19,014 bases of DNA from NCBI GenBank assembly GCA_964014485.1, contig CAXHAT010000157.1:1-19014 (forward strand), in the 5' to 3' direction. Shown one piece after another: positions 2,413-19,014 of the stretch. Source of the DNA: an uncultured Deferribacteres bacterium. Its GTDB lineage: Bacteria; Zhuqueibacterota; Zhuqueibacteria; Zhuqueibacterales; Geothermadaptataceae. Position numbers and translations under genes: made by a program. Under the pieces are notes generated by a model. That model saw only the letters and a list, made by a program, of their open reading frames with translations, did not search any database and was not told the DNA's origin. How positions within the stretch are numbered: position 1 is the stretch's first letter; every line of letters begins with the position of its first letter.

Positions 2413-2960
2413 GTGTAAGAAAGGAAAGATCGCTTTTGAAAATCCAGATTGTCCCCAGCGCGCTGATGACGGATCGTGAAATAGAAAATATCATTTCGTT
2501 CTGCAATCGCGCCTACGCAGAAGAGCTGGACGCCTTGTTTGAAACGTTCGAGAACACGACGCATGTTCTTGGCTTGATTAACGAAAAGTTGGTCAGTCAC
2601 GCCATGTGCGTGACGCGATATTTGCAAACCGGAGCGGCGCCGATCATGCGCACCGCGTACGTCGAGATGGTCGCGACGGAAAAAGCGTACCGAAGGCGCG
2701 GGTTTGCAGCGGCGATCATGAAACGCTTGATCGATGAAGTGCAGGATTACGATTTGGCCGCACTCTCACCGTCCGATCATAAATACTACGCGAAACTTGG
2801 CTGGGAGCTTTGGCAAGGCCCGCTTTTTATCCGCACCGACGACGGGCTTTTAGCTTCACCGGAAGATGAAGAAGCGATGATTTATCGACTGCCCAAAACG
2901 CCGGTTTTGGATTTGGCCGCACCGCTTTCGGCGGAATGGCGTGAAGGGGAGTTGTGGTGA
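2409..2960 (+). CDS. GNAT acetyltransferase, aminoglycoside 2'-N-acetyltransferase AAC(2')-I-like
   Basis: Acetyl-CoA motif A (YVEMVATEKAYRRRGFA), YDLAALS, YAKLGWELWQGPL and C-terminal EWREGELW resemble AAC(2')-I (DWRxGDxW); ATGA overlap with the pepN stop. Confidence 0.8.
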   Translation: MSVRKERSLLKIQIVPSALMTDREIENIISFCNRAYAEELDALFETFENTTHVLGLINEKLVSHAMCVTRYLQTGAAPIMRTAYVEMVATEKAYRRRGFAAAIMKRLIDEVQDYDLAALSPSDHKYYAKLGWELWQGPLFIRTDDGLLASPEDEEAMIYRLPKTPVLDLAAPLSAEWREGELW

Positions 2961-3037
2961 CGGCGTGACGCCACACAAATTTCCCAAAATCGCTTCCAAA
3001 AACATGTAAACGGGGTCAAAGTACAACCTTAATTCAG

Positions 3038-3835: not shown

Positions 3836-3852
3836 CTGTTACAGAAGAATTT

Positions 3853-3879
3853 TAACTTTTTTCAAAAGAGACTGTCTAA
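3853..3879 (+). promoter_or_regulatory. Candidate ECF (sigmaE-like) promoter upstream of tricorn gene
   Basis: TAACTT-N16-TCTAA resembles the GAACTT-N16/17-TCTRA consensus; about 40 bp upstream of ATG 3920, which has a GGAGGAG RBS. Confidence 0.35.
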
Positions 3880-3919
3880 AATTAAAACCCCAATTTTTTA
3901 CCTAACCGGAGGAGTTAAA

Positions 3920-6900
3920 ATGAGAAAGGCGGCGTTATTGCTCGGACTTTTGATCTTTTGCACAAATGCGGGCGCCCAAATCAATGCGAAATTGATGCGC
4001 TACATGGACGTTTCCGATTCACAGATTACGTTTGTTTTTGGCGGCGACATTTGGGTAATGCCCAAATCCGGGGGAACGGCGATTCAGGTGACGCATTCGC
4101 CGGGCGAAGAAACATGGCCGCGTTTTTCTCCTGACGGCAAGCACATCGCTTACACCGCAAGTTACAACGGCAATCAAGACGTGTTCGTCATGCCTGCGGC
4201 GGGCGGCGTTCCCACGCGCCTGACCTACCAATCCCACACGGATCGCTTGATTGACTGGCATCCCGACGGCAAGCGCATTTTGTTTGCTTCCGGGCGTGAA
4301 AGCGGGCGGCAGTCGTTTCGCCAGCTTTATCTGGTGAGCATGGAAGGCGGTCTGCCGGAAAAACTGCAGGTACCTTACGGCGAATTGGCCAGCTATTCGA
4401 AGGACGGCAATCGCCTCGCCTACATCACCAAAATCACCGAAAATTATCCCTTCAAGCGTTACAAAGGCGGTTTGGCTTCTGACGTGGTTATTTTCGACCT
4501 GCGCAGCAACACCGCCGAGAATATCACCAACAATCCCGTGAATGACGGACAGCCGGCATGGGTCGGCGATGAAATTTATTTTTTGTCTGATCAGGGCGAA
4601 GAGTTCCGCCGCAACATTTGGGTATATGACACAAATTCAAAAACCGCGAAGCAAGTCACGACATTCAAGGATTTCGATATTTCCTTCATGTCCGCCGGGC
4701 CTTCGGAGTTGGTATTTGAAATGGGCGGCGGCATTTACCTGATGGACGTGAGCACGCATGAGTACAAGCAAGTTGAAGTCAACGTCGTCAGTGATTTGTC
4801 GGCGGAAATGCCTCGCACCGTTGACGTGAGCGGGCGGATCAACAACATGACCGCCTCGCCCGAAGGCAAGCGCGTTGTTTTTGAAGCGCGCGGCGAGTTG
4901 TTCAACGTTCCCGCGACCGAGGGCTACAGCTTCAACATGACCCAGAGCAGCGGCGCTTTCGATCAAAATCCCGCCTGGTCGCCGGACGGCAAATTCATCG
5001 CCTATTGGAGCGATTTTTCCGGCGAATACGAACTTTACCTGCAATCCAGCGACGGCAAATCGGAACTGCGGAAACTGACCAATCGCGGCAAAGGTTTTGG
5101 CTATTCGCTCTTTTGGTCGCCGAACAGCGAGAAAATCGCTTTTATCGATGAGACAAATTCGATCTATGTTGTCGATGTCGAAAGCAAAGAGTTGACAGAG
5201 GCGGGCAACACAAATTGGAACACCGGACACGGCTCGCGATTCGGCTATCCCATTTCCTGGTCGCCGGATTCGAAATGGCTCGCGTTTACGCAAGGTCTTG
5301 AAAATGCGAACAATGCAATTTTCTTGTATGACGTGGAAAATAAAAATTTGCAGCGAGCGACCAGCGGCTTTTTTGAAGACAACACCCCGGTTTTTAGCGC
5401 CGACGGCAAGTACTTGTTTTTTCTTACCAATCGCAGCTTCTCCGCCGCCTATTCCGATATGAATGACGGCACCTGGATTTATCCGAATTCAACCCAAATC
5501 GCCTCGCTCAGCCTGACGCCGGACGCGCCTTCGCTTCTTGCCCCGAAAAATGATGAGTCGAAAAAAGAAGAGAAAAAGCCTGAGGGCGAGAAGAAAGAAG
5601 AAAGTGAAAAAAAGGAAGATGCGGAGAAGAAAAAATCGGAGGAAGTAAGTGTAGAGATCGACTTTGACAATCTTGAGTCGCGACTGGTGCTGCTTCCGCC
5701 CAAGGCTGGAAATATCGGCTGGCTGGCGCCGTTTGAAGGCAAGCTGGTTTTCCTTCGTTTTCCCAACACAGGCTCAGGGGAGCGAGGCGCTTCACTCCAT
5801 TTTTACGATTTCAAAAAACGCGAAGAAAAAGAGATTATCGGCAACGTTCGCGGCGCGGCTGTTACTGGCGACGGCAAGTCGCTGCTCGTACGAAGCGGCA
5901 ACAAGTACGGCGTCATCAAGCCCGCGCCGAAGCAGAAAATCGAAAAGCCTGTGCCGACAAACGGCTTGGTGATGAACCTGACGCCGCGTGAAGAATGGCG
6001 GCAGATTTTCAACGACACCTGGCGCCGTCACCGCGATTTCTTTTATGATCCCGCCATGCACAAAGTCGACTGGGACGGCTTGCGCAAGCAGTATGGCGCG
6101 CTGATTGAAGACGCACGCACGCGCTGGGACGTGAGCAACATTCAATCGAACCTGGCGGCGGAATTGAGCGCCGGACACACTTATACTTTTGGCGGCGACA
6201 CTGAAAACGTGCCGCGCCGAGTGACTGGATTTCTTGGTATCGACTGGGAATTGCACAATAATTTGTATCGGATCAAACGCATTGTTCAACCCGCCGTTTG
6301 GGACACGGAAGTGCGCTCGCCGTTTGATCAACCGGGCGTAGACGTCGGCGCGGGCGACTACATTTTATCGGTCAACGGCGTGACGCTCGATCCGAAAAAA
6401 GATCCCTACGCTGCGTTCGAAGGCTTGTCCGGACAAACGGTCTCTCTAACGGTGAGCAAGACCGGCGAGAAAAGCGACGCTAATGATCTGGTGATAAAAT
6501 GCCTGACACAGGGCGAAGAAATCAATTTGCGCTACCTCGAATGGATCGAAAATAACCGCAAGATGGTGGACAAGCTTTCGGACGGCAAATTGGGCTATGT
6601 TTACATGTCGAACACGGGCGGGCGCGGGCAATTGGAATTGGTGCGTATGTTTTACGGCCAGTTGGATAAAAAGGGCTTCATCATCGACGAACGCTTTAAC
6701 GGCGGCGGCCAATTGGCGGATCGTTTTCTGGAATTAATGCAACGCCCGGTCGTCTATAATTTACATTGGCGGCACGGGAAAGATCATACTTGGCCGATGA
6801 AAACCAACACCGGCCCGCTTGGCATGTTGATCAACGGCTGGGCCGGTTCCGGCGGCGACGGTCTGCCGTGGGCGTTCCAGGAATTAAAAGCCGGCCCGAT

Positions 6901-7210
6901 TGTCGGCGAACGCACGCTCGGCATTTTGGTCGGCCCGGCGACGGGACACCAACTCATCGACGGCGGCGGCATTACCGTACCCGGCGCGCGGCTTTATGAC
7001 AACGACGGTCACTGGTTCTGGGAAGGCGAAGGCGTCGCGCCGGATTTCAAAGTGTGGGACGATCCAAACATCCTCGTGCAAGGCCGCGATCCGCAGATTG
7101 AAAAAGTGGTGGAAGAAGTGCTGAAGCTTTTGAACGCGAACCCGCCGAAAATGACCCCAGCCCCTGCGCCGGAAGATCGTACGGCGGCTGGTTTGAAAGT
7201 GAAAAAATAG
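3920..7210 (+). CDS. Exported tricorn protease homolog (peptidase S41 family; beta-propellers, PDZ, catalytic domain)
   Basis: Signal peptide; PD40-like repeats (PRFSPDGKHIAY, PAWSPDGKFIAY, PVFSADGKYLFF); FFYDPAMHKVDW; LSAGH catalytic His; PDZ (GDYILSVNG); IIDERFNGGG; catalytic Ser in AGSGGD; EGEGVAPD, GRDPQIEK. Confidence 0.95.
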   Translation: MRKAALLLGLLIFCTNAGAQINAKLMRYMDVSDSQITFVFGGDIWVMPKSGGTAIQVTHSPGEETWPRFSPDGKHIAYTASYNGNQDVFVMPAAGGVPTRLTYQSHTDRLIDWHPDGKRILFASGRESGRQSFRQLYLVSMEGGLPEKLQVPYGELASYSKDGNRLAYITKITENYPFKRYKGGLASDVVIFDLRSNTAENITNNPVNDGQPAWVGDEIYFLSDQGEEFRRNIWVYDTNSKTAKQVTTFKDFDISFMSAGPSELVFEMGGGIYLMDVSTHEYKQVEVNVVSDLSAEMPRTVDVSGRINNMTASPEGKRVVFEARGELFNVPATEGYSFNMTQSSGAFDQNPAWSPDGKFIAYWSDFSGEYELYLQSSDGKSELRKLTNRGKGFGYSLFWSPNSEKIAFIDETNSIYVVDVESKELTEAGNTNWNTGHGSRFGYPISWSPDSKWLAFTQGLENANNAIFLYDVENKNLQRATSGFFEDNTPVFSADGKYLFFLTNRSFSAAYSDMNDGTWIYPNSTQIASLSLTPDAPSLLAPKNDESKKEEKKPEGEKKEESEKKEDAEKKKSEEVSVEIDFDNLESRLVLLPPKAGNIGWLAPFEGKLVFLRFPNTGSGERGASLHFYDFKKREEKEIIGNVRGAAVTGDGKSLLVRSGNKYGVIKPAPKQKIEKPVPTNGLVMNLTPREEWRQIFNDTWRRHRDFFYDPAMHKVDWDGLRKQYGALIEDARTRWDVSNIQSNLAAELSAGHTYTFGGDTENVPRRVTGFLGIDWELHNNLYRIKRIVQPAVWDTEVRSPFDQPGVDVGAGDYILSVNGVTLDPKKDPYAAFEGLSGQTVSLTVSKTGEKSDANDLVIKCLTQGEEINLRYLEWIENNRKMVDKLSDGKLGYVYMSNTGGRGQLELVRMFYGQLDKKGFIIDERFNGGGQLADRFLELMQRPVVYNLHWRHGKDHTWPMKTNTGPLGMLINGWAGSGGDGLPWAFQELKAGPIVGERTLGILVGPATGHQLIDGGGITVPGARLYDNDGHWFWEGEGVAPDFKVWDDPNILVQGRDPQIEKVVEEVLKLLNANPPKMTPAPAPEDRTAAGLKVKK

Positions 7211-7255
7211 ACTTCCTGGAAATGCGGCAGATTTTTAAAAGCTGCGTCTAGCGTC

Positions 7256-7305
7256 AAGCGCCTTTGTTATGGCAAAAAAAATTGTCGTAACGAAGGCGTT
7301 TTTAT
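7256..7305 (+). terminator. Long-stem intrinsic terminator between convergent tricorn and toxin genes
   Basis: AAGCGCCTTTGTTATGGCAA / TTGTCGTAACGAAGGCGTTT pair with G-U wobbles, followed by a T-rich tract. Confidence 0.7.
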
Positions 7306-7335
7306 TTCGGACGCGATTTCCGGTGCGAGAAGCGT

Positions 7336-7737
7336 TCAAACAAACGCAATGGTTTGTACGGTTAAATCATTGACGTCGTAATAATCGACGTGTTTGCGCC
7401 TGACGCGGAGCGCTTTGCCCATGCGGGAAGCCTTTGTTTTAAAAGACTTCATCGCAAAAAGCTTTTGAAGCAAGGCGGGAATTTCTTCGATGCGGTCATT
7501 GGGCAGGACGAAACAAATCAGGCAGTAATTTTTGTGCAGAGGCGTCCTGCGCCAAAAGTCAGCGGTATTGTTTGTGATAAAAGTTGGATGCTTTGCTGTT
7601 CTGAGAAGCGTTGGGACGGCTTCGTCTTTGATAACCGTTCCCGATCTCAGCGTTAAAAGTGACGTGACTTTGCCTCGATACCACTGTTGCGTCTCCAGAA
7701 AAACTTTATATTTGATATTCTCGTCAAAAACGATCAT
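7336..7737 (-). CDS. PIN-like (DUF5615/VapC45-like) toxin, 133 aa
   Basis: Starts MIVFDENI; D-E-A-V and FITNNTADF match the PIN-like acidic motifs; ATGA overlap with the DUF433 stop; the 202-aa ORF-track call is over-extended. Confidence 0.75.
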   Translation of the reverse strand: MIVFDENIKYKVFLETQQWYRGKVTSLLTLRSGTVIKDEAVPTLLRTAKHPTFITNNTADFWRRTPLHKNYCLICFVLPNDRIEEIPALLQKLFAMKSFKTKASRMGKALRVRRKHVDYYDVNDLTVQTIAFV

Positions 7738-8045
7738 GCCGCAGCCCGTACACTGTCGACTTCTTGCACCGAATGCATTAACGCATTTTTTGCAACCTGA
7801 ATCGCTTCCTGTACAGATTCCTTTGAAATATCGCTGTACGGATATTGCTCCAGAACTTGTTCGACTGAACGTCCTGCAGCGATCAGGTCGAGTATTACGG
7901 CCACTTCGAGGCGCGTATATTTGAAGGTTGGTCTGCCGCCGCAAACGCCCGGCGCCGCGACGACGTGTTCACCCAGGGGGACGTACTCATACCATTCGCC
8001 GCCCACTTTCTCTCGCACGATTCGGGATTTCTTTTTTTTCATCAT
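7734..8045 (-). CDS. DUF433-family antitoxin (VapB45-like HTH)
   Basis: PGVCGGRPTFKYTRLEVAVILDLIAAGRSVEQVLEQYP...ISKESVQEAI is a clear DUF433 signature; start probably ATG 8045 or 8042. Confidence 0.88.
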   Translation of the reverse strand: MMKKKKSRIVREKVGGEWYEYVPLGEHVVAAPGVCGGRPTFKYTRLEVAVILDLIAAGRSVEQVLEQYPYSDISKESVQEAIQVAKNALMHSVQEVDSVRAAA

Positions 8046-8108
8046 CACGCCTTTTTGAAATGTCACAACGAATTTTCGGTTCTTGAATATATAAATCCGC
8101 GTCGGTTT

Positions 8109-8831
8109 TCAAAACGATAAACTCAGAATTGCCGCCGAACCCGCGAACCTGCCGCCATTCACGGAATGAATAGGCCGGACGACGATTGACGGCACGCCAA
8201 ATTGGAAATGATTTTCATTGAAATTGAGCAGCGCGTGATTTGGCGGCGACGTTTTCTTGTAACGCCGCGTCGCATTAAAAAACAATGTTGCGCCAACGGG
8301 CGGCCAAAGCCAGAAGTTCGCCAGCCAGGCGTCTTCGGAATTTCCGGCGAAGGCAAAGTACCAAAACCAGAATCCAGCAACGGCTCCAATAATTCCTGCG
8401 CCGAATGACCCTGTTTCGTTTCCGCGACTGCCGATAATTTTCACGCCAAGCGCGCTGCCGAACGTGTAGCCTGCTGCGAACCCCAAAAGCGCTCCGCCCA
8501 AACCGCACCAATCACCGGAGCAGGGGCCATTAACGATTCTTTCCGTGATCACGCCTGCCATAACGCCGCCCATCCCAATAAAACCGCCGACCGCGCCGCC
8601 AATGATGACTTGGCCAATCATGCGTCCCGGACGCAGCGGCGGTTTTCCCTTTTCTGAAAATGCTGCGGATGCTTCGGGAATTGGCGTTCTTCTGCCATGA
8701 GATTCGAAGGACGACAAGCGATTTTCGTTGGTTAACTCCGAAGGATGGAAGGGAAATGACTGGCCTCGCATTTGTGCATTTACGTTGATCACGCACATAA
8801 AAATGCTGCAGAGAATAGCAAAGTTTTTCAT
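8109..8831 (-). CDS. Hypothetical exported/membrane protein with glycine-zipper helices
   Basis: Signal peptide (MKNFAILCSIFMCVINVNA); GxxxG repeats (GGAVGGFIGMGG, GGALLGFAAGYTFG, GAGIIGAVAG); CSGDWC loop; C-terminal beta-strand ending in F; GAGG RBS. Confidence 0.75.
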   Translation of the reverse strand: MKNFAILCSIFMCVINVNAQMRGQSFPFHPSELTNENRLSSFESHGRRTPIPEASAAFSEKGKPPLRPGRMIGQVIIGGAVGGFIGMGGVMAGVITERIVNGPCSGDWCGLGGALLGFAAGYTFGSALGVKIIGSRGNETGSFGAGIIGAVAGFWFWYFAFAGNSEDAWLANFWLWPPVGATLFFNATRRYKKTSPPNHALLNFNENHFQFGVPSIVVRPIHSVNGGRFAGSAAILSLSF

Positions 8832-8852
8832 TTTCGACGCCTCTTGTTTAAC

Positions 8853-8882
8853 ATTTACCGGAAAAGCTTTTCTCCGGTAAAT
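8853..8882. promoter_or_regulatory. Inverted repeat immediately upstream of the glycine-zipper gene (operator or leader hairpin)
   Basis: ATTTACCGGA (8853-8862) / TCCGGTAAAT (8873-8882) enclosing the palindrome GAAAAGCTTTTC. Confidence 0.4.
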
Positions 8883-9436
8883 TCAAAAAGCAGACCGTCT
8901 TGAGTGAACGAGAAACCGGATGTTTTGAGTTCAAAGCCGAATTAAAAACTCCATTGAGGAGCGTTAATTTGCTTCCGTAGTAGCGGAGAGACAATCATGT
9001 AAATGCGACATTAATGTAACCTGGCGGGATAATGCTGGAGCGCTGAGGTCTCTTAAACCAACTTTCAAATATTCGTTAGTCGAATTGATGGGGAATATTA
9101 AAATGGGTGACTAAAATACAGCAGCGCGAGATCCGAGATTTTTTTCGGCTTTCGCAAACAGACACGCCTCCAATTGGGGATTGACAAGCGGCGTTTTTTG
9201 CAAAAACCATCGCGACTCCAAATTTCGGGGACGAGCCTTGTCACAAAAATCCTTCTTCCAAAACGGAGAGCACTCAAAAAGTTCATTCACTGCCCGTCCG
9301 TCATTGTCTCGGACGCGGCGTCGGGGAAGATTGATTCAGCGGCGAGCTTTCACAGAGCCGTCGTTGAAATCGTGACTCCAATTATAACTGATGTTACGCG
9401 TGCCGCCGCATTTTCTGTGGCTCAAACGCACACACC

Positions 9437-9574
9437 TTCTCATTAGCGCCGGGCTTCAGCCCGGTGACGCGCGAAACGCCCAATTTCACCTCTTCCCGCC
9501 GCGCCGGCGGGGCGGGAAGAGGCGGGATGGCCGCCCTCAAACATCTCCGCTCTGAAGAGCGGAGCTAATGAGAA
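9437..9574. repeat. REP-doublet / MITE-like element (138 bp) with inverted ends and internal hairpin
   Basis: Terminal IR TTCTCATTAGC / GCTAATGAGAA, each followed inward by an 8-bp hairpin with a TTCA loop; internal 12-bp stem CCTCTTCCCGCC (9489-9500) / GGCGGGAAGAGG (9511-9522). Confidence 0.75.
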
Positions 9575-9881
9575 TCAAAGGTTTCCCGCAGGCTTTGATT
9601 GCGGGCGCCAAACGATGCGTGCTTAACTTCAGATTATAATTTCGACAATGCTTTCAGCAGTTCAGACGGCTGTTCTGAACCTTGGAAACGTACGGCTTTG
9701 CCGCTCCTGCAAAAGATGGTTCGTTTCGTATCGGCGGGAATACGCAAGCCATAGAAGCCCTCGTTTTGAACAGCGATTGACGCCTGCGGGTAGCAAGTCG
9801 ATTCTTAGAACCATAAATCAAAAGGTGATTCTCAGGGCGAGAGTCGTCTGAAATTGACTATTAGCAAAAAGGTAAATAAAA

Positions 9882-11828
9882 ATGAAAAACTCATATTTTA
9901 TTCATTCAATCCGCAATGTCGCGAAAATGCTCGCGATGTTGTTTGTTTTGACGTTGGGCGTCCAAAATACGATTGCCAGACAGGATCAATGTAACCGCCC
10001 CAACCCGAATTTCTGTCCCGGCAATTTTTTACAGAACGGCGATTTTGAAACCATCACCGGTAATCCCAACCTTAGTTCGGACGTTGATGTTAATATGGCC
10101 TCGGGCTGGCTTTCTCTCTGGAATAGCCAGGTCAGTGCTGATTTGCATTGTAACGGCGGCGGCAATTCGACTGGGACAGCTCCCGTTCCCAACTCGTTCG
10201 TTTACGCCGGCATGTGGATTGAAAACAGACCAGGCACAAATACGGTAAACGCCAGTCAGCGTGAAGGCATGCAGAACAGATTGGCGACGCCGATTGCCCA
10301 AAATTCCGGTCAATACACATTAGAGTTCAACATCGCAAACGCTTTGGCGCCAGGCGGGAACAACAGTTCAAGCGTAAGCATCGGCGTCTATGGCGTTTAC
10401 AATCCTAACTCCTCTGTTGCTGTCAGACCGACCGGCGCTAACGCAAATCCGACAAATGTCAATTTATGGCAATCCGTCGATTCTTCCGTTGAAGTCGTCT
10501 TGTTAGGTACGATTACGACGCCTTCTAACTTTACCAACACATGGGTTCCACAAAGCGTCTCGTTTGACTCCGCGATTCTGCCTGACGGCGGAATCACCCA
10601 CATCATGATAACCGCGGATGACAACGCGCGTCCCGCAACTTACAGAAAAGTGTATGTGAACTTCGACGAGTTTTGTCTGCAAAGACAGCCTTGCGAATGG
10701 CTGAATAATCCGTTTACGCCGTCGATAGTTTACGGCCTCCAGGGTTCGACTTTCTCCGGAGGGGTAGATTCGTTCACGCCGCCGATTGACTGTCAAAACA
10801 TCAAGTATACCTGGACTTTTGATAATGACGGTGTCATCGAAAAATGGAACGACGGTTCCGTCAGTTTTACTTTCCCGCCGGTCAGTGGACCGTTCGGGCT
10901 CGTAAAAGATGTTTGTGTGGAAATCGCGTGCTTCGGCAGCGATACGACCGGCATGCCTTCCTGCGTCAGTCAAAAGGCCTGCGTCAACTTTCCGTTGCAT
11001 CCATGCGAATTCGAAACAGTTGATCTCGGCCCCGACACGACGGTTTGCGATACTTCCAATTTTGTTCTGGACGCCGGGCCCGGATGGCCGTCATACAAGT
11101 GGTTTGAGATTTCGGACAATACAAACGTGCTTTCCACCAGCCAGACCTACCAGCCGACTGCTCCCGACGGCGTTTATATCGTGGAAGTCAGCAATCCGGA
11201 CATCGGCAAGGCCTGCACCAAGCGCGATACGATTAAAGTTAAGGTAAAGGAATGCGATCCGTGCATCAGCAGTCTCACCTTCGACGCCCAGCCCGGCGAA
11301 TTCTGTACTATTGACTTCGCGGCCATCGCTTCCGGAATACAGATCGTTGGCTATCACTGGGATTTCGGCGACGGCGCAACGGCTGTCGGACCAAGCCCGT
11401 CGCATCAGTACGATGGCCCCGGCATTTACGCCGTGACTTTGACGGTGATTGGCGTCGATGCGGATGGAAAATGCTGCACAAGAAAGATCACTCGAAAAAT
11501 TAAGGTGGTTTGCAAGGAGTCCGGCGAATGCCTTGTTAGGCCGGATTTCTCGGTAAACAACATCATCAATCTCGAATTCCAGTTTACCAATGAAAGCGTC
11601 TCAAACAGCGTGACGACGATTGTCGGCTACCACTGGGATTTTGGGGACAACAACACTTCAACAGCGGAAAACCCGATCCATACTTACAACACTTTCGGGG
11701 TGTATCGAGTTACCCTGACCGTTTACGGTCTGGATAAAAACGGCGACTGCTGCATGGAGAAAATCTACAAATATATTAAAGCCTATCCGGCTGCGACAGG
11801 CTCAACAGTCATTGTGCCTGAAAAATAG
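9882..11828 (+). CDS. Secreted Cys-rich protein: N-terminal CBM-like jelly-roll, Ig-like segments, two C-terminal PKD domains
   Basis: Signal peptide; NFLQNGDFE...VNFDEFCL; VDLGPDTTVC...LDAGPGWPSYKW; two PKD motifs (YHWDFGDGATAVGPSPSHQYDGPGIYAVTLTV; YHWDFGDNNTSTAENPIHTYNTFGVYRVTLTV). Confidence 0.85.
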   Translation: MKNSYFIHSIRNVAKMLAMLFVLTLGVQNTIARQDQCNRPNPNFCPGNFLQNGDFETITGNPNLSSDVDVNMASGWLSLWNSQVSADLHCNGGGNSTGTAPVPNSFVYAGMWIENRPGTNTVNASQREGMQNRLATPIAQNSGQYTLEFNIANALAPGGNNSSSVSIGVYGVYNPNSSVAVRPTGANANPTNVNLWQSVDSSVEVVLLGTITTPSNFTNTWVPQSVSFDSAILPDGGITHIMITADDNARPATYRKVYVNFDEFCLQRQPCEWLNNPFTPSIVYGLQGSTFSGGVDSFTPPIDCQNIKYTWTFDNDGVIEKWNDGSVSFTFPPVSGPFGLVKDVCVEIACFGSDTTGMPSCVSQKACVNFPLHPCEFETVDLGPDTTVCDTSNFVLDAGPGWPSYKWFEISDNTNVLSTSQTYQPTAPDGVYIVEVSNPDIGKACTKRDTIKVKVKECDPCISSLTFDAQPGEFCTIDFAAIASGIQIVGYHWDFGDGATAVGPSPSHQYDGPGIYAVTLTVIGVDADGKCCTRKITRKIKVVCKESGECLVRPDFSVNNIINLEFQFTNESVSNSVTTIVGYHWDFGDNNTSTAENPIHTYNTFGVYRVTLTVYGLDKNGDCCMEKIYKYIKAYPAATGSTVIVPEK

Positions 11829-11837
11829 ATAAAACCG

Positions 11838-11872
11838 CCGCCTTCGAAATTCAATTTTGAGGGCGGCTTTTA
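11838..11872 (+). terminator. Intrinsic terminator after the PKD gene
   Basis: GCCGCCTTCGAAATT / AATTTTGAGGGCGGC stem (with G-U pairs) followed by TTTT. Confidence 0.7.
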
Positions 11873-12050
11873 CGCAGGTCGGAGCGCGGTCGTCAGGCTC
11901 TTGTTGAACGGCAATTTGACTGAATGCACAGCGTCCCGGCAGGCGCAGCGACGGAGATCGTCGCTGCATGACGACAATTCAAAATAACAGTTTATGCTTC
12001 AGGTTTTCAATGCAGCCTGAAGTGAAAATTTAATAGAGGGCAAGATAATC

Positions 12051-12551
12051 ATGGCTATAGTATGTTATACAGCGAGTGGGGAAAATCACTGGTTTTATAA
12101 AAGCGGCGGTTGAGGCGGAGTCGAGTTGGGCGGGCCCCACAACGTAACCTGCTATGAAGCGATTCCGACAGACCCGACGACTTTCCCTGACGGAAACGTC
12201 ATTGGACAAGGCGGAGGCGTCGTGCTGACCGAACTGGACAACATGACTTATGAAGCTGATCTCGAAACCGGGAACGTCTCGGTCGTCTTTCAGGGAGACG
12301 ACAGACCGAGAGTTTTCAGCGCCGTTGATTTGAACGGATTAGCCGCAGAGTACGATCTCATCGTCAGCGGCAGCGTCATCAAATACGGAATTCCCGCAAA
12401 AGTCATCAAGGGAGCAAAAAACCTGCGGTACAAAAGGGTGGCGATTTCCGTTTCATGCCTGAGCAAATGCTCAAAGAAAAAAAGGGTTCTCAAAGAGAAA
12501 AGCGTCATTATCGATCCATATAAATTCAGGACCGTGACGTTAATCGATTAG
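12051..12551 (+). CDS. Hypothetical 166-aa protein with in-frame TGA at codon 21 (candidate selenoprotein, otherwise nonsense-disrupted gene)
   Basis: AGAGGG RBS then ATG 12051; MAIVCYTASGENHWFYKSGG-TGA(12111-12113)-GGVELGGPHNVTCYEA continues in frame into the 12126..12551 ORF, which ends at TAG. Confidence 0.6.
12114..12153 (+). promoter_or_regulatory. Candidate bacterial SECIS hairpin directly 3' of the in-frame UGA
   Basis: GGCGG...GTTGGG-CGGGC-CCCACAAC...CTGCT can fold into an imperfect stem; the apical loop starts after a 17-nt spacer from the UGA and has G at its second position; folded by eye only. Confidence 0.4.
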
Positions 12552-12635
12552 ACGGACCATGACTCACGTCGAACCAATCGACAATGACAAACAACCCATA
12601 CAAAACAAACTCCCAAAATAACAAAGGATACAAAA

Positions 12636-14621
12636 ATGAAAACAATCATATATATGCTCTTCCTAAGCCTGCCGATGTGTCTTTTTGCGCAACAGCAGGC
12701 GGAAGTTTGCAGCGATACGCTCGACAACGACAACGACGGCCTCTACGATTGCGCCGATCCTGATTGCAGCGACGAAGCGGCTTGTGAAAACGCCATTCCC
12801 TGTACCAAAAACAGCGTTTTTTATCAGGTTCTGGGCGGGGACAGGTTTGTCAGTTATGATCCCGCCGCTCTGCAATACACTGACATCCATACGAATCCAT
12901 ATACAATCAACGCCATCGGCTACAATGTGCATGACGGCTTTATTTATGGAATCAAGCAGCGAACTAACGAGCTGGTCAAGGTCGGCAAGGACGGCGTTTT
13001 CGATAATCTGGGAGCCGTCGTCGATCTGCCCCCGCCCCTAAGCGGCAGGTGGTACGTCGTCGGCGATTTCGATCTGGACGGTAATCTGTACGTTTATCAT
13101 GCAAGTCTGAACTCCGTTTACCGCATAGATGTTACCGACCGCAGCGCCGCGGCCATTGCTTTAAAGGACGATATGGGCGCACTGACAAAAGTGAAAATCG
13201 CAGACTTTTCATTCTTGCCGGATACGGAAAAGCTTTACGGACTGGAAAGCGGTACGGCGAGCTTGTTCTCAATTGACCTCGCCGGAAATGTAGAAGAGTT
13301 GGGACCGCCGTCGCCGCTTTCAGGGGATGCTGACAACAATCCTGCCGGATGCAACTCAGGTTTTGGCGCTTCATTCGCGGATAACAGCGGTTCTCTTTAT
13401 TTCTTCTGTAACGCCGATGGAGACTTGTTTAAAATTGACCCTGACAACATGATTTCGGAATTGCTGCAAGCCACAGGAGACACTCTTTTCGTCAACGACG
13501 GCGCGGCGTGCGCCCTGTCAGACAGCCTGGTGATCCCGGACGGCGCGTATTGCTGCGAGGGAGAAAACCTGATCGAAAACGGCAATTTCGAGAGCGGCGA
13601 TACGGGGTTTCAGAGCGACTACAAAGCCGTGATCAAGGGCTTTGCCGTCGATCCGAGCGAGTACGCCGTCATCGATTTCAACGACGCCGATTCGGTGTGC
13701 GCTGAATGGGAAGTCGCTGACCACACCTGGTGCGTGAACGGCGGCGGCAACAATCAAATTCTCGTCGTCAACGGTCAAACGCAGCAGAGCGCCAATGTTG
13801 ACAACGTCATCTGGCAGACGGCGAAGCCGGTTCAGGTCGAGCCGGACAGCATGTACAAATTCTGTTTTTTCGCCAACCATTTGCCGCAGTGCTGCTTTGA
13901 CATTGTCCCGGAACTTTCCGTTGAAGTGCGGGACGCGGGGACGATTGCCTGGATGCCCATCGTTCCGGCCTGGACTTCCGCCGCCTACACCGGAACGGAG
14001 CCGCCGCCCTGCGATTGGGAGAAAATCAGCGGAACGTTCGAAGCGCAGACCGGCGCCGTTGAAATCAGAATTCTGCTCAACGAAACAGGCAACGGCGACG
14101 GCAATGATTTGGCCCTCGACGACATTTCGCTCACCAAAATTCCGAAAACGGAACTGAGCATCGAAGTCTCCGCCAAAATTCCTTCCAATCCCTTGCAATT
14201 GCAAGCTTCCATCAACGATATTGTCAACACCGATGACGTTCTGCCGTCGCCTGAGTGCGAATATCTCTGGGCGATTGTGGAAGTTACGGATTTGTCTCCG
14301 CTGAATCTGGATTGGGGACAAACGATGAACAACGGCTGGTACGGCGGCAGTTCCGCGGGCCACGCCTGGGGGTTGACGACGGATTTTCCGGGAATCAGCC
14401 TGCCGGGCGACAAGCTCTACCGCGTTTATCTCTGCGTCTACGACTGCGACTGCCTGGCGGAAGCGAGCGTCTTCGAAGATTCCGGCGGCGCTTTCTCACT
14501 GGACGGCGATTCGCCAAAACTCGATCTGCGCCCCCGCAAAGCAAACGCAGGAAAACCAGACGCTACAGAAGATTTTCTCAAGAAAGTCCTGGAAAGAGAG
14601 AAAAACGAAAATAAACAATAA
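12636..14621 (+). CDS. Secreted Cys/Asp-rich protein: DxDxDG metal-binding motif, DUF6923-like beta-propeller, CBM-like domain
   Basis: Signal peptide; EVCSDTLDNDNDGLYDCADPDC; INAIGYNVHDGFIYG, VGDFDLDGNLY, FGASFADNSGSLYF, NDGAAC; NLIENGNFE...GNDLALDDISL. Confidence 0.85.
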   Translation: MKTIIYMLFLSLPMCLFAQQQAEVCSDTLDNDNDGLYDCADPDCSDEAACENAIPCTKNSVFYQVLGGDRFVSYDPAALQYTDIHTNPYTINAIGYNVHDGFIYGIKQRTNELVKVGKDGVFDNLGAVVDLPPPLSGRWYVVGDFDLDGNLYVYHASLNSVYRIDVTDRSAAAIALKDDMGALTKVKIADFSFLPDTEKLYGLESGTASLFSIDLAGNVEELGPPSPLSGDADNNPAGCNSGFGASFADNSGSLYFFCNADGDLFKIDPDNMISELLQATGDTLFVNDGAACALSDSLVIPDGAYCCEGENLIENGNFESGDTGFQSDYKAVIKGFAVDPSEYAVIDFNDADSVCAEWEVADHTWCVNGGGNNQILVVNGQTQQSANVDNVIWQTAKPVQVEPDSMYKFCFFANHLPQCCFDIVPELSVEVRDAGTIAWMPIVPAWTSAAYTGTEPPPCDWEKISGTFEAQTGAVEIRILLNETGNGDGNDLALDDISLTKIPKTELSIEVSAKIPSNPLQLQASINDIVNTDDVLPSPECEYLWAIVEVTDLSPLNLDWGQTMNNGWYGGSSAGHAWGLTTDFPGISLPGDKLYRVYLCVYDCDCLAEASVFEDSGGAFSLDGDSPKLDLRPRKANAGKPDATEDFLKKVLEREKNENKQ

Positions 14622-14696
14622 TAATCTCTCTGTTTCCAGTAATACTCATTCATAAATCGTAACAAAACTGAGCATAGAATCAAACGCTCTGTTTCG

Positions 14697-14733
14697 CAAA
14701 AGCCGGGTTTGATAAATTCAAATCCGGCTTTTG
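14697..14733. terminator. Intrinsic terminator (probably bidirectional)
   Basis: CAAAAGCCGGGTTTGA / TCAAATCCGGCTTTTG 16-bp stem, 5-nt loop, A and T tracts at the stem ends. Confidence 0.75.
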
Positions 14734-14865
14734 AATCGTGCCCTTTGTGAAACGAAATGTCTTGTTGATGCAGTTCCGATGCGGCGCCGAAAGTTCTGTC
14801 GTCCGTCAAACCCGCTTTTCTGTTCATCGGACGCAAATCGTTCAATTTTTAAGCTTACCCGCCTG

Positions 14866-14897
14866 ACAAATCGGTCATAAACCCGCACAAAACGGTC
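14866..14897. promoter_or_regulatory. Direct repeat with 21-bp period, LytTR-type operator candidate, upstream of the DinB-SnoaL-AhpD-HK cluster
   Basis: ACAAATCGGTC at 14866 and ACAAAACGGTC at 14887 (10/11 identical); a weaker copy GCAAATCGTTC at 14833. Confidence 0.45.
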
Positions 14898-15001
14898 GTT
14901 CCGCATTTTTCCAGCAAAACAGCCAGCGTCTCATGGCTGCTCCGTTTTATCTTCAGCCCAGCTTTGCAACAGGAATGCAAATTCAAAAATGGAGAATTGT
15001 T

Positions 15002-15547
15002 ATGAACGTGAACTTACCCTACCACGAAATTCCAGACTATCCGCCAGAATACAATGTCGGCACGGTTTTGAGTCGATTCATCGACGGCCTTGGCTTTCGC
15101 TATTTTTGGGCGACGGAGGGATTGACTGTCGAAGATTTTCAGTACAGGCCGTCAGAAGGCGCCCGCTCGCTCGGCGAAACCGTAGACCACATCTACGACA
15201 CGGCGTGTATGATCAATGGCGCTTTTATTCGCGAGCGATTCAACGTGAACGAAGTGAAACCGTCCGGGCTGCCCGCGGACAAATTGCGACGAAGAACGCT
15301 CGCATTGTTAAAAGATATGAGCGATTGGTTGAAGCAAAAAGATGATGCGAACTGGGATCAGGTTTCGCTTGGATTTCAAATTGGAGACAGCAAACCGGAT
15401 TTTCCCTTCTGGCATGCTTGCAATGGGCTCGTTTTGGATTTTGCTCAACATGTGGGGCAAATCGTCAGTTTCCGACGCACTCTGGGTAAGCCGATTAACC
15501 CTGAAGCGCACGTTTTTTTCGGTAAGTTGATGAAGCAAGCGGCATAA
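15002..15547 (+). CDS. DinB/YfiT-like four-helix-bundle protein
   Basis: DGLGFRYFWATEGLT..D..YRP...ARSLGETVDHI and D.AQHVGQIVSFRR..G.P motifs; GGAG RBS at 14991 favours ATG 15002 over 14933. Confidence 0.8.
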   Translation: MNVNLPYHEIPDYPPEYNVGTVLSRFIDGLGFRYFWATEGLTVEDFQYRPSEGARSLGETVDHIYDTACMINGAFIRERFNVNEVKPSGLPADKLRRRTLALLKDMSDWLKQKDDANWDQVSLGFQIGDSKPDFPFWHACNGLVLDFAQHVGQIVSFRRTLGKPINPEAHVFFGKLMKQAA

Positions 15548-15609
15548 AACCGCAAAGAAAATCAATTCACAAAACTCGTTTTTATTCCAAAGCGAAAGGG
15601 AGATTAGCA

Positions 15610-15984
15610 ATGTCTACAAACCTCGCTCTCACACAAGCTGCTTACGAAGGCTTCGGTAACGGTGACATGAATCCGCTTTTTAGCATACTCGCCGAAGATA
15701 TTCTCTGGAACAGCCACAGCCATCCGAGTTCGCCCTTTCACGGCGTCCATCGCGGCGTTCCGGCGATTCAGGCTTATTTTGGCAACATGGTAAAAGTTGA
15801 ACTGGAAAAATTTGAGATCATGAACATGATTGAAGCCGACGACAGAGTTGTCGTGCTCGTCGACGTCCGCCGAGTCACAAAGGAAAGCGGGCAAATGATT
15901 GAGGGAATGGCCGTTCACACTTATAAGTTCGCAAATGGTAAAATCACGCAGGCGGACTTGTACGAACCCAGTGCAGCGCTGTAA
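15610..15984 (+). CDS. SnoaL-like / NTF2-fold protein
   Basis: AYEGFGNGDM...LAEDILW...FHGVHRG..AIQAYF...DDRVVV...VHTYKFANGKI pattern; GGGAG RBS. Confidence 0.88.
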   Translation: MSTNLALTQAAYEGFGNGDMNPLFSILAEDILWNSHSHPSSPFHGVHRGVPAIQAYFGNMVKVELEKFEIMNMIEADDRVVVLVDVRRVTKESGQMIEGMAVHTYKFANGKITQADLYEPSAAL

Positions 15985-16069
15985 GATGGAGTAATGGAAT
16001 GATGGAGTAGTGGAATGCAAAACTCCATTATTCCAGCAATCCATTAATCCAATATTCCACAACTCCACT
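15985..16069. repeat. Inverted arrays of 8-bp tandem repeats (4x nnTGGArT, then 6 inverted units)
   Basis: GATGGAGT AATGGAAT GATGGAGT AGTGGAAT ... ACTCCATT ATTCCAGC AATCCATT AATCCAAT ATTCCACA ACTCCACT. Confidence 0.85.
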
Positions 16070-16101
16070 TCCCCGGTTTTTAAAATTTAGAGGAGAATGC
16101 A

Positions 16102-16677
16102 ATGCAAAGATTCGATCCGATAAAATACCCTGACGCGGGGACGCCGCTGGCGGAAATGTACAAAATGATCGTCGAGGGCGGCGGCCAGGGCGCGGAAGAA
16201 GGCGTGCCGACAAACTATGTCACTTCGATGGGTCAGCGTCCCGATTTGCTTGGCGGCGTGATGGGCATGGCGGGCGCGATTTTTTATGAAGGCCAAATTC
16301 CGATGACCGTCAAGCAAATGATCGGCATGGCCATCGCGATTTTGCATGATTGTCGTTACTGCGCCACCGGAACGCGCCGCGCTTTGGAAGCGATGGGCGT
16401 GCCGGTCGAAGTCATCGAAAGCTGCGCCAGTGATCCGGAGTTTTCAGCGCTGCCGCCCTCTCAGCGGGCGATTTTGAAATTCGCTCTGAAAGCCGATAAA
16501 TCCGCCGCTTCTTTAACCGACGATGATTTCCAGACGATGTACGATTTTGGCTTTTCCGAGGAGGAAGTCATCGAGATTTTGATGATCGTCGCTTCCGCGC
16601 GTTTTAACGATTTTTGGGCGGACGTCAGCCAAATTTCGCTGGACGGCGAGGAAGAAGCGGTATCGGCTGCCGCGTAA
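16102..16677 (+). CDS. AhpD/carboxymuconolactone decarboxylase-like protein (CRYC), atypical active site
   Basis: RPDLL, KQMIGMAIAILHDCRYC, SQRAILKFALK, LTDDDFQ..YDFGFSEEEVIEI match the peroxidase-related AhpD family; GAGGAG RBS. Confidence 0.85.
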   Translation: MQRFDPIKYPDAGTPLAEMYKMIVEGGGQGAEEGVPTNYVTSMGQRPDLLGGVMGMAGAIFYEGQIPMTVKQMIGMAIAILHDCRYCATGTRRALEAMGVPVEVIESCASDPEFSALPPSQRAILKFALKADKSAASLTDDDFQTMYDFGFSEEEVIEILMIVASARFNDFWADVSQISLDGEEEAVSAAA

Positions 16678-16728
16678 AATCAAGGCGAGTACATTTTAGT
16701 GAATTCTTTGCGTTTGACTTTGTGACTT

Positions 16729-16884
16729 AACGCAGAGAGGCGGAGATCACAGAGTTCCGCGGAGTTTTAAAAAAACAAAAGTTCAGATGTCCGCTTATGG
16801 GTGCTCGTACCTCAGTTTCGTCCATCATTGAAGTCACAATTAAGTGATCTTTGCGCTTCTCAGCGTTCTTTGCGTCTCTGCGTT
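16729..16884. repeat. Inverted arrays of ~9-bp tandem repeats (ACGCAGAG-type) flanking an ~84-bp spacer
   Basis: AACGCAGAG AGGCGGAG ATCACAGAG TTCCGCGGAG (16729-16764) versus CTTTGCGCTT CTCAGCGTT CTTTGCGT CTCTGCGTT (16849-16884). Confidence 0.7.
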
Positions 16885-17013
16885 TGTAAAAAACCCATGC
16901 GCGAATGCTTTTTTCGAGTACGATGGGAAATGGATTCATCAGAAACTGAACGATAATTTTGAACCGGATTGAGAGAGTGTACGAAATTTGATCTATCCAT
17001 CAAGGAGATAATC

Positions 17014-17565
17014 ATGTCCAGATTTACACAAACATTAAACCCGGACGCCAGTCAGCCGGAATTGGCCGAAATCTACGGCGAAGTTATGCAAAACGGCTTT
17101 GGCAAGAAAACGCCTTTGAACTGGTTTACCTCGATATCAAAACGTCCTGATATTTTGGCGGCGTGCTGGGGATTCGCCAAATCGATTATTTTGCAGGGAC
17201 AGGTGCCCGCGACGGTAAAACAGATGATCGCGGTAAAGATTTCGACGGCTAATCAATGCGAGTATTGTTCCGTCATCTATTCCCGTGCACTCCGAGCCAT
17301 GGGTGTGAAGCCGGAAGTGATCGATTGCGTGACCAACGATTTAAGTTTGTCAAGAGTGCCGCCGTCGCAGCGCGCCATCTTGCAATTCGCGCTCAAAGCG
17401 TCAAAACATCAGCAAAATTTGACCGACGAGGATTTTCAGGCATTGTACGATTTCGGCCTTTCTCAAGGCGAAGTCATGGAAATTCTGCTCGTCGCCGGTT
17501 ACACCAATTTTATCAACTTTTGGGCGGAGGCCAGCGGTATTCGCGTCGACGAGGCCGCGGCATGA
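17014..17565 (+). CDS. Second AhpD/CMD-like protein (CEYC), paralog of 16102..16677
   Basis: AAGGAG RBS before ATG 17014; KQMIAVKISTANQCEYC, PPSQRAILQFALKA, LTDEDFQALYDFG closely match the first copy. Confidence 0.85.
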   Translation: MSRFTQTLNPDASQPELAEIYGEVMQNGFGKKTPLNWFTSISKRPDILAACWGFAKSIILQGQVPATVKQMIAVKISTANQCEYCSVIYSRALRAMGVKPEVIDCVTNDLSLSRVPPSQRAILQFALKASKHQQNLTDEDFQALYDFGLSQGEVMEILLVAGYTNFINFWAEASGIRVDEAAA

Positions 17566-18893
17566 TGATGCGCAACGACACGGCGTTTGGCGGCCAGAAC
17601 AACGTCGGGTTCCAGGTGTCGGTCAGCACGCTGACGTTAGGCACTTTGTACGAATCGATTCTGGCCTTTTCCAGCCAGGAAACGCTCGAGACGTTTTGGC
17701 CGGCGGTCTGCGGCAATGCGCGTTGGCTGATTCCCTCGCGCCGCCTGCTGGTTTTGCTGTGTGCGAACGATCATGAAGCGGAGATCGTCGGGAAATTCGA
17801 GCAAGGCAAGTTTGCGTGGCCTGAAAATGACGAGCGCTGGACGTCTTGCACGGAATTACACAGCCTGTTCAAAACGCCAAACGCGCGTTGGATTGAAAAA
17901 CCTGGCGAAAACTTTCGCGAGGCTGAACCACAGTGGCGGGATTGGCTTTTTCGCGACGAGAAAGAGATGCTGTTTCTCGTGCCGATCCGCACCCGCGGCG
18001 AAACGCTCGGCGTGATGATGTTTGTCACCGGCGGTACGTCCCGGGAAGACCAGGCGATGCTCAACACGCTCGGCACCATCTACGCGCTGCACACTGGCAT
18101 GACCTACGAGATGATCCGCATCACCGAAGACAAACGCCAGATGCAAAGTCAGTTGATGATGCAGGAAAAAATGGCGACGCTGGGTAATTTGGCGGCGGGC
18201 GTTGCACACGAAGTGAACAATCCCATCGGCGCGATCAACAGCGCGGCGGACGTGGTGACGCGCAGCGCTCAAATGCTCGAAAAACTCATCCAGGAAGCGG
18301 ATTCCATCGAATCGCTGCGATCCCACCCGAAACTGGCGAAAGCGATTAACATTATCTCGAAAAACAACGCCGTCACGAAAGACGCCGGGCAGCGCATCGC
18401 GAAAATCGTCAAAAGTCTGAAGAATTTTGCTCAGCTCGACGAGGCTGAGTACCAAATGGCCGACATTCGCGAAGGCGTTGAAAGCACGTTGACGCTCGTG
18501 CAACGCGAGATTCCGGCAGGCGTGAACATCATCACCGAATTAATGGACGTGCCGGAAATTCACTGCAACATGGGGCAATTGAATCAGGCTTTTATGCACT
18601 TGATTCTCAATGCGTTGGACGCGGTTGAAGGCGAGGGCGAAATTCGTCTCCGCACTTTTCAAGTCAACGACAGGGTCTGTTTTGAAGTGTCTGATTCCGG
18701 CGTTGGCATTGCGCTGGACAAATTGGAGAAGATTTTTGAACCCGGTTTTACGGAGAAAGGGGTCGGGGTTGGCGTCGGTCTGGGCTTACCAATTTGTCGA
18801 AATATCGTTCGAGATCACAACGGAGAAGTCGATGTTCGGAGCACGCTTGGCGAAGGCAGCGTTTTTGCGGTGAAATTGCCGGTAAAAAATTAA
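17562..18893 (+). CDS. Soluble sensor histidine kinase with N-terminal GAF-like domain (NtrB-like HisKA + HATPase)
   Basis: EKMATLGNLAAGVAHEVNNPI H-box; QLNQAFMHLILNALDA N-box; DSGVGI; IFEPGFTEK; GVGLGL; GAF-like LVPIRTRGETLGVM; ATGA overlap with the upstream stop; no clear TM helix. Confidence 0.92.
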   Translation: MMMRNDTAFGGQNNVGFQVSVSTLTLGTLYESILAFSSQETLETFWPAVCGNARWLIPSRRLLVLLCANDHEAEIVGKFEQGKFAWPENDERWTSCTELHSLFKTPNARWIEKPGENFREAEPQWRDWLFRDEKEMLFLVPIRTRGETLGVMMFVTGGTSREDQAMLNTLGTIYALHTGMTYEMIRITEDKRQMQSQLMMQEKMATLGNLAAGVAHEVNNPIGAINSAADVVTRSAQMLEKLIQEADSIESLRSHPKLAKAINIISKNNAVTKDAGQRIAKIVKSLKNFAQLDEAEYQMADIREGVESTLTLVQREIPAGVNIITELMDVPEIHCNMGQLNQAFMHLILNALDAVEGEGEIRLRTFQVNDRVCFEVSDSGVGIALDKLEKIFEPGFTEKGVGVGVGLGLPICRNIVRDHNGEVDVRSTLGEGSVFAVKLPVKN

Positions 18894-18899
18894 TTTTTC

Positions 18900-18932
18900 T
18901 TTTGACAAGATTTACAGGATCAACGGGATGAT
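18900..18932. repeat. 9-bp-unit short tandem repeat (GATTTACAG/GATCAACGG) just after the kinase stop
   Basis: TTTTGACAAGATTTACAGGATCAACGGGATGAT; same family as 217-248, opposite orientation. Confidence 0.55.
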
Positions 18933-19014
18933 CTCTATCAAATAATTTTACTGGAATATGTTTTATCCGACATTCCGCAAGTCAATTGTCGCATTTGAAA
19001 TCATTTGTTGAAAG

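Follow-up and report, generated by a model that had tools for sequence, protein, structure and literature searches.

AhpD-fold CMD proteins encoded beside a predicted GAF-type input domain: a probable two-protein cytoplasmic sensor cassette

Gene organization of the cassette

We analysed a 19,014-nucleotide stretch of DNA from an uncultured Deferribacteres bacterium (GenBank assembly GCA_964014485.1, contig CAXHAT010000157.1, positions 1 to 19,014; hereafter the window), near the end of which two genes for AhpD-fold proteins of the CMD family, CMD1 and CMD2, lie upstream of a gene for a soluble histidine kinase. Across the loci compared, a CMD gene accompanies the N-terminal domain of this kinase (hkN), and the cassette is probably an undescribed two-protein cytoplasmic sensor whose signal would be redox or thiol stress. 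Its components, by window position, are the following.

16102–16677, plus strand: CMD1, type-A AhpD-fold protein (191 amino acids; Pfam CMD, PF02627)
16315–16374, plus strand: CMD1 active-site stretch Q72...C84xYC87...T91 (sequence reading)
16678–17013, no strand: spacer between CMD1 and CMD2 (336 bp), with a dispersed repeat inside
17014–17565, plus strand: CMD2, type-B AhpD-fold protein (183 amino acids; Pfam PF02627)
17221–17280, plus strand: CMD2 active-site stretch Q70...C82xYC85...Y89 (sequence reading)
17562–18893, plus strand: soluble HisKA histidine kinase (443 amino acids)
17562–18131, plus strand: hkN, kinase residues 1–190, predicted divergent GAF input domain (alignment, AlphaFold2, Foldseek, ESM Atlas)
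18180–18317, plus strand: HisKA phospho-acceptor domain, kinase residues 207–252 (Pfam PF00512, 30.3 bits against 26.9)
18576–18887, plus strand: HATPase_c catalytic domain, kinase residues 339–442 (Pfam PF02518, 81.7 bits against 26.4)

CMD1 is preceded by its own Shine-Dalgarno sequence, GGAGGAG, and the ATG of CMD2 at 17014 sits behind AAGGAG, the longest form of that open reading frame (ORF) starting with TTG at 16969. The stop codon of CMD2 and the ATG of the kinase overlap in the sequence ATGA, as the initial annotation of the window had noted, and the two genes are predicted to be translationally coupled through this overlap. An alternative kinase start at ATG 17256, which gives the longest ORF, was dropped because it overlaps CMD2 in another frame and alignments with orthologs begin at 17562. 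The description of the CMD genes as tandem paralogs holds in that both precede the kinase, whereas tight spacing does not, the two being 336 bp apart with a repeat in the spacer.

The kinase carries the elements of a HisKA-type sensor kinase, namely the HisKA and HATPase_c domains and an H-box, HEVNNP, with His216 as read in the translation. It has no transmembrane segment (maximum 19-residue Kyte-Doolittle mean 1.17), in agreement with the earlier description of the protein. The contig stops 121 bases past the kinase gene, so a downstream response regulator is not visible, and none of the annotated ORFs in the window is an ahpC or lipoamide-system gene. Three DNA sequencing runs, all from one marine-metagenome study, carry the stretch or parts of it; the same run search listed no RNA dataset carrying it.

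Family, fold and active-site residues of CMD1 and CMD2

Both proteins match PF02627 above its cut-off of 23 bits (CMD1 39.3, CMD2 47.6), and the best NCBIfam model for each is TIGR01926, 'peroxidase-related enzyme', at 52.3 and 71.9 bits, below the cut-off of 81.8. AhpD of M. tuberculosis is an alkylhydroperoxidase that re-reduces AhpC and has a Glu/His proton relay; we take its active-site residues to be Glu118, Cys130, Cys133 and His137. The window proteins share the CMD fold with it and carry CxxC on the same helix, but have Q and T/Y at the relay sites and a GAF kinase as partner. In CMD1 the motif reads K71-Q72-M-I followed by C84-R-Y-C87-A-T-G-T91 and in CMD2 K69-Q70-M-I followed by C82-E-Y-C85-S-V-I-Y89, giving a shared pattern of Q-x11-CxYC-x3-T/Y; the retained CxYC, the Q and the T or Y had all been read correctly in the initial annotation. 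A PDB profile search aligns the Q and T/Y columns with the Glu and His of 2prr, 2pfx and 3c1l (E-value 1.2e-26 for 2prr). The CxxC pair is therefore present in both proteins, while the Glu 12 residues before the first Cys and the His are absent from both, and because two of the four catalytic AhpD residues fail, neither protein is classed as an alkylhydroperoxidase. CMD1 has in addition a third family-conserved cysteine, Cys108, within SCASDP.

An AlphaFold2 model, made for CMD2 alone, shows the all-helical AhpD-core fold with a predicted local distance difference test score (pLDDT) of 92.6. Foldseek places it nearest to 2prr, with a template modelling (TM) score of 0.84–0.87, and also matches 3c1l, 2pfx, 6k40, the debrominase Bmp8 (~0.8) and sestrin2 (0.69). 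By fold, the closest known relatives of the CMD proteins are thus the AhpD-core proteins of TIGR01926 type (2prr, 2pfx, 3c1l, 2oyo and D. radiodurans AhpD, 6k40), which have the same fold and length (TM 0.82–0.87) and the same CxxC helix. Proteins of that type have Glu and His flanking CxxC, whereas the cassette family has Q at the Glu position in 61 of 71 copies and is further set apart by an invariant N-terminal R3-F4, the motif NWFT and the third cysteine. Linkage to a kinase is not a known trait of the TIGR01926-type proteins in the literature searched.

We defined conserved columns as those with at least 90% agreement in 39 relatives, after dropping three truncated rows (L037, L038 and L039, our handles for individual loci) and a degenerate copy from L010; CMD1 keeps 28 of 32 such columns and CMD2 29 of 32. 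The possibility that the two genes are decaying pseudogenes was rejected on these counts together with the intact frames and the presence of ribosome-binding sites. The same three conserved columns deviate in both paralogs, L to I/V, H to T/Y and P to A/Q (residues 66, 91 and 135 of CMD1; 64, 89 and 133 of CMD2), a parallel change that suggests a remodelled site common to both subunits.

The kinase N-terminus as a divergent GAF-type domain

The N-terminal 190 residues of the kinase gave no Pfam match at E ≤ 0.01. In the AlphaFold2 model (pLDDT 83.3, predicted TM score 0.81), residues 1–18 are disordered and a long C-terminal helix spans residues 161–189. Foldseek returned 338 PDB matches at E ≤ 0.001, all of those listed being GAF domains (for example 4g3v, TMt 0.75; 3k2n, 0.70; 5w10, 0.65), and structure matches in the ESM Atlas were to GAF_2 at TM ~0.7. 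Among 24 orthologous sensors, GAF_2 matched hkN weakly in L009, L018 and L021 and above its cut-off in L019 (29.9 against 28.6), while L013 and L014 owe their stronger GAF_2 matches to another GAF domain, internal to the protein, at residues ~350–492. Judged by these models, hkN is a divergent GAF subtype; the label 'GAF kinase' given initially is accordingly right as to fold.

Ten positions are invariant in 31 aligned hkN domains (G27, F36, S37, W46, R54, W55, P58, W110, P141 and H177), and C50, within VCxNARW, is near-invariant (28/31). The domain is rare, with 106 clusters at E ≤ 1e-3, 76 at E ≤ 1e-10 and 37 at E ≤ 1e-30 among 1.84 billion representatives, and all 37 of the strongest matches begin within residues 2–25 of their protein.

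Two-way synteny of the CMD gene and hkN

Searches seeded with either partner led to the other. From the CMD side, an hkN homolog adjoins the CMD gene in 30 of 32 genome loci, directly downstream on the same strand in 28 and convergently in two (L028 and L033); the two unpaired loci are L039, where the contig ends inside the CMD gene, and L037, with a truncated CMD gene and no sensor. From the hkN side, a CMD homolog lies directly upstream in 22 of 24 metagenome loci, the remaining two being L062, which starts at a contig end, and L063, a weak partial match (E 7e-5) with no CMD gene. No assessable full match of hkN in these 24 loci lacked a CMD gene. The linkage of CMD proteins to kinases postulated from the window is borne out in both directions, and it runs through the hkN domain whatever the output.

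Record titles place the genome loci under about ten phylum-level labels, comprising Latescibacterota, several classes of Acidobacteriota, Actinomycetota, Ca. Entotheonella, SAR324, Myxococcota, Bdellovibrionota, Pseudomonadota, Bacteroidota and Chloroflexota, and at least one carrier is cultured and has a complete genome (L017). Genes outside the cassette are unrelated between loci (69 flanking ORFs from 17 loci), and the cassette was found once in each of three carrier genomes checked. At E ≤ 1e-10, hkN was not found in 40 relatives from the same family, order or class as the window genome; because of this absence the cassette is taken to move as a unit, and from its distribution it appears to behave as a mobile, self-contained element. 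In a scan of 301 Bacteroidota genomes at E ≤ 1e-5, the hkN profile matched the seed genome alone.

Could the window simply contain ordinary AhpD paralogs beside an unrelated kinase, their adjacency having no functional meaning? CMD genes are abundant, at least seven being present in the window genome, and the flanking DinB_2 and SnoaL_2 genes are generic, both of which would suit such an explanation. It is nevertheless contradicted by the two-way synteny across many phyla and speaks poorly to the movement of the module as a unit, away from 40 relatives in which it was not found, and to the ATGA overlap between CMD2 and the kinase, and we give it almost no credence.

The genome of the window encodes five further CMD paralogs, all with the canonical E...CxxC/U...H arrangement and none with a sensor gene within ~1.5 kb on either side. 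In two of these five an in-frame TGA takes the place of the second Cys codon of CxxC, in the contexts C-F-Y-TGA and C-V-Y-TGA, with Glu and His in place (L004, G000:C274:7442-7852, minus strand; L005, G000:C71:180-626, minus strand); from their sequences they are likely AhpD-like selenoproteins.

Output domains and downstream genes

Domain architecture was scanned in 24 of the 30 paired sensors. In most loci hkN is followed by HisKA-HATPase, and more elaborate outputs comprise PAS-GAF-HK-REC-REC (HK, histidine kinase; L013, L014), PAS-PAS-HK-REC (L016, L017, L020) and HK-REC (L022). An unusual architecture was found in an Acidobacteriota metagenome-assembled genome (MAG), where hkN is joined to sigma54-AAA+ and then a Ser/Thr protein kinase (L032:1689-3989). 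Downstream genes, where present, encode REC-cyclase (L026, L036), cyclase (L011), REC-GGDEF (L030) or REC plus Hpt (L022), and in 11 of 17 flank-scanned loci no response regulator was found beside the cassette. The CMD gene thus tracks hkN whatever the output, as one would expect if its product were a co-sensor or were bound up with the signal of that domain.

These outputs also bear on a precedent in which CMD genes are regulated rather than regulating. Wecke et al. 2012 (PMC3426412) report CxxC-bearing CMD genes as conserved neighbours of the extracytoplasmic function (ECF) sigma factors ECF41, in two species as the only ECF41 targets detected, with an order that is often COE then ECF. The ECF41-CMD ('COE') pairs resemble the present cassette in setting a CxxC CMD gene beside a signal-transduction gene across phyla; there, however, the CMD gene is the target of the sigma factor, whereas the CMD genes of the cassette accompany a sensor input domain whose outputs vary and often do not act on transcription. 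By analogy, the CMD genes could be antioxidant cargo co-transcribed with their regulator, an arrangement with which the upstream, same-strand position of CMD1 and CMD2 agrees. The linkage observed is nonetheless to a sensor input domain and not to a DNA-binding regulator, which makes this explanation improbable in our judgement: no adjacent response regulator was found in most of the scanned loci, those regulators that are present often have cyclase or GGDEF output (L026, L036, L030), one partner is the sigma54-AAA+/Ser-Thr kinase, and none of the assessable full matches of hkN was without a CMD gene.

Motif states across relatives

Outside the window, 71 CMD copies were compared, 45 from the 32 genome loci and 26 motif-covering copies from the 24 metagenome loci. 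The Glu position holds Q in 61, E in nine and H in one. CxYC is intact in 70 of the 71, the exception being the degenerate second copy of L010, and His is kept in 68, being replaced by Y in the second copies of L009 and L044, which may represent one lineage, and by D in the degenerate L010 copy. The window locus is the only one in which both paralogs lack His. Q at the Glu position is therefore a family trait, and His is normally kept. It follows that 'Q-x11-CxxC lacking His', the pattern by which the initial annotation would have collected homologs to look for kinases beside them, does not describe the kinase-linked family, and that the accompanying notion of pseudo-peroxidases may apply to the window lineage alone, in which Glu and His are both absent, most members keeping more of the active site.

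In the first CMD copy of a Latescibacterota MAG (L008:4428-4985), an in-frame stop stands where a conserved Trp is found elsewhere; a mistake in sequencing, pseudogene status and recoding of the codon are all conceivable causes.

The retention of His in 68 and of CxxC in 70 of the 71 relatives raises the alternative that the CMD proteins are working enzymes, with peroxidase, disulfide reductase or Bmp8-like reductive activity on a small molecule that the GAF domain binds, and that the two proteins make no contact. The nearest structures are enzymes or presumed enzymes of TIGR01926 type and the debrominase Bmp8, GAF domains commonly bind small ligands (the hkN matches include the cAMP-bound Lcd1 GAF, 5w10), and linkage to an input domain whatever the output fits this arrangement equally well. 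Several features are harder to accommodate. The proton-relay Glu is replaced by Q in most copies, the His-less but otherwise conserved window pair is difficult to square with retention of an AhpD-type catalytic cycle, conserved cysteines peculiar to the family occur in both partners, and no further pathway genes are conserved nearby. On balance, we consider an enzyme and a sensor for one and the same compound rather unlikely, though it is the alternative that we take most seriously.

Paralog types and copy number

A maximum-likelihood tree of 42 CMD copies of at least 150 residues resolves three groups, A, B (a grade) and C. CMD1 of the window falls in type A (clade support 98/91, end branch 0.98), together with first copies from two-copy loci and the sole copy in many Acidobacteriota. 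Type B contains CMD2 and other second copies, CMD2 being sister to the second copy of L009, which also has Y at the His position. Type C comprises single copies beside hybrid kinases and both copies of L030 and L031. The third cysteine of SCASDP follows this division, being present in 33 of 35 type A and C copies, window CMD1 counted, and missing from nine of ten type B copies.

Two copies occur in about one-third of loci (10 in the genome set, plus one with a degenerate second copy), and the order in two-copy loci is A, B, sensor. This recurring A and B pair is compatible with the hetero-oligomer suggested at the outset for CMD1 and CMD2, and falls short of proof. A prediction of the complex of CMD1, CMD2 and the GAF domain, with a separate alignment for each chain, scored 0.01 where the mark was 0.32 and speaks neither for nor against binding. 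The deposited structure of one relative, 2prr, has 12 chains, and kinases are dimers.

The second CMD copy of L015 appears frameshifted. Near-identical two-copy cassettes occur in L030, a MAG labelled Gammaproteobacteria, and L031, a Flavobacteriaceae MAG (Urechidicola), with branch lengths of 0.02–0.08, reflecting either recent transfer or a binning error.

A proposed thiol-based co-sensor

We somewhat favour a model in which the CMD proteins are dedicated thiol-based co-sensors of the GAF input domain, the two together forming one conserved cytoplasmic sensor cassette. One or two AhpD-fold CxxC proteins would work with the dedicated hkN domain of the signalling protein encoded by the next gene, and would themselves be the primary thiol-reactive receptor. 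Oxidation, an electrophile or possibly a metal would alter the state of CxYC and, in type A, of the third cysteine; that state would reach the GAF domain by physical contact, either binding or thiol-disulfide exchange with Cys50, and the kinase core would in turn be regulated through the C-terminal helix of the domain (residues 161–189), so that control would run from CMD protein to kinase. Because both window paralogs have also lost the active-site His, they are probably not peroxidases, and in this lineage they would probably act as sensor subunits or disulfide exchangers. The model draws on the two-way synteny, on a pairing that is indifferent to output and to flanking genes, on the conserved cysteines of both partners, on the intact state of the window copies and on the ATGA overlap; the canonical paralogs elsewhere in the genome, with no sensor gene found beside them, serve as an internal control.

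A more specific version of this model is a complete AhpD-fold thiol relay, in which CxYC and the third cysteine would capture an oxidant or electrophile and hand the signal to Cys50, through a mixed disulfide or by docking that depends on redox state; the GAF domain would then switch whichever output it precedes, be it a kinase, a hybrid kinase, a cyclase pathway or a sigma54 activator. The window pair, with Q for Glu, T/Y for His and parallel changes at two further conserved columns, would have given up the last catalytic residues and become pure sensor subunits, a prokaryotic counterpart of the sestrins. Taken with all these details, we regard it as unlikely.

Several observations weigh against the co-sensor model. 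The loci are related to one another, with about a dozen from Bryobacterales and near-identical metagenome contigs (L041-43, L047-50), so that the 52 paired loci represent a much smaller number of independent lineages, perhaps about a dozen. Adjacency would likewise be conserved if an enzyme and a sensor shared a small molecule. Since most members keep His and 9 of 71 keep Glu, the family may carry out ordinary catalysis. The hkN domains of L018, L030 and L031 have no Cys50 although their CMD partners keep CxxC, and a relay through Cys50 therefore cannot be universal. Finally, no fused CMD-GAF protein was found among 1146 longer proteins sharing sequence words, in a weak, word-based search.

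Comparison with known systems

In the full-text literature that we searched, which did not extend to subscription journals, we found no account of a GAF kinase with an AhpD or CMD protein as its partner. H-NOX/HnoK and NosP/NahK are familiar cases of a separate cytoplasmic sensor protein whose gene adjoins that of its signalling partner, and by function the closest analogue of the cassette would be a sensor of the H-NOX/HnoK type beside a kinase or cyclase. As in those systems, a small soluble sensor gene lies directly upstream of kinases without transmembrane segments or of cyclic-nucleotide enzymes, the outputs varying while the pairing stays constant, and the adjacency found here is likewise conserved independently of the output domain. 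In place of a haem sensor, however, the cassette has an AhpD-fold cysteine protein, and its receiver is a dedicated GAF-type domain to which binding is putative.

For the proposed mechanism, the nearest parallels are yeast Orp1/Gpx3-Yap1 and Tpx1-Pap1, in which a thiol-peroxidase-like primary sensor hands the signal to a cysteine of a regulator, much as is envisaged for CxxC/Cys108 and GAF Cys50. Those proteins have other folds and belong to another domain of life, and the relay proposed here meets three GAF domains that lack the cysteine. Sestrins offer an instance of an AhpD-like fold reused in signalling, and the CMD2 model matches them at TMq 0.69 (5cuf, 5dj4). The identity is nevertheless 19%, sestrins consist of two fused lobes, act on GATOR2 and have no GAF or kinase partner, and there is no evidence that the signalling role is of common descent. 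An AhpD-family gene in an organohalide-respiration region is described in PMC7755780 and is unrelated to pairing of a CMD protein with a GAF kinase.

Cytoplasmic histidine kinases with unannotated N-termini constitute a large blind spot in the study of bacterial signalling, the inputs of most being unknown. Here the input has two defined partners, a cysteine protein of AhpD fold and a single GAF subtype, and can be combined with kinase, hybrid-kinase, cyclic-nucleotide or sigma54 outputs. Should the CMD protein prove to be the receptor, the few stand-alone sensor proteins of bacteria would gain a further fold, and there would be a bacterial example of an antioxidant-enzyme fold reused for signalling. 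The His-less window pair and its His-containing relatives furnish a natural comparison on the question of whether signalling needs catalysis.

The spacer repeat and neighbouring genes

Most of the spacer between CMD1 and CMD2 (~16717–16932) is a copy of a dispersed repeat that has 50 matches on many contigs of the same genome, at 68–95% identity. Its arms, at 16729–16754 and 16859–16884, are imperfect inverted repeats of 26 nucleotides that are 77% complementary; the element resembles a miniature inverted-repeat transposable element and seems to have been inserted between the two genes. Spacers in orthologous two-copy loci are mostly ~5–30 bp, or the genes overlap, with 177 bp in L018. A 70-amino-acid minus-strand ORF at 16727–16939, inside the repeat, is probably spurious and not a gene. 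An Rfam scan of the whole window matched no family, and the repeat is therefore not a known RNA.

Immediately upstream on the same strand (14933–15984) are a DinB_2-like gene, scoring 23.9 bits, just below the cut-off, and a SnoaL_2 gene, neither of which is conserved beside the cassette in other loci. Farther upstream, 12636–14621 encodes a secreted protein of 661 amino acids that has a DUF6923 repeat and is rich in Cys near its N-terminus, and further large genes of the window encode an M1 peptidase with HEAT repeats, a tricorn-like protease and a PKD-domain protein.

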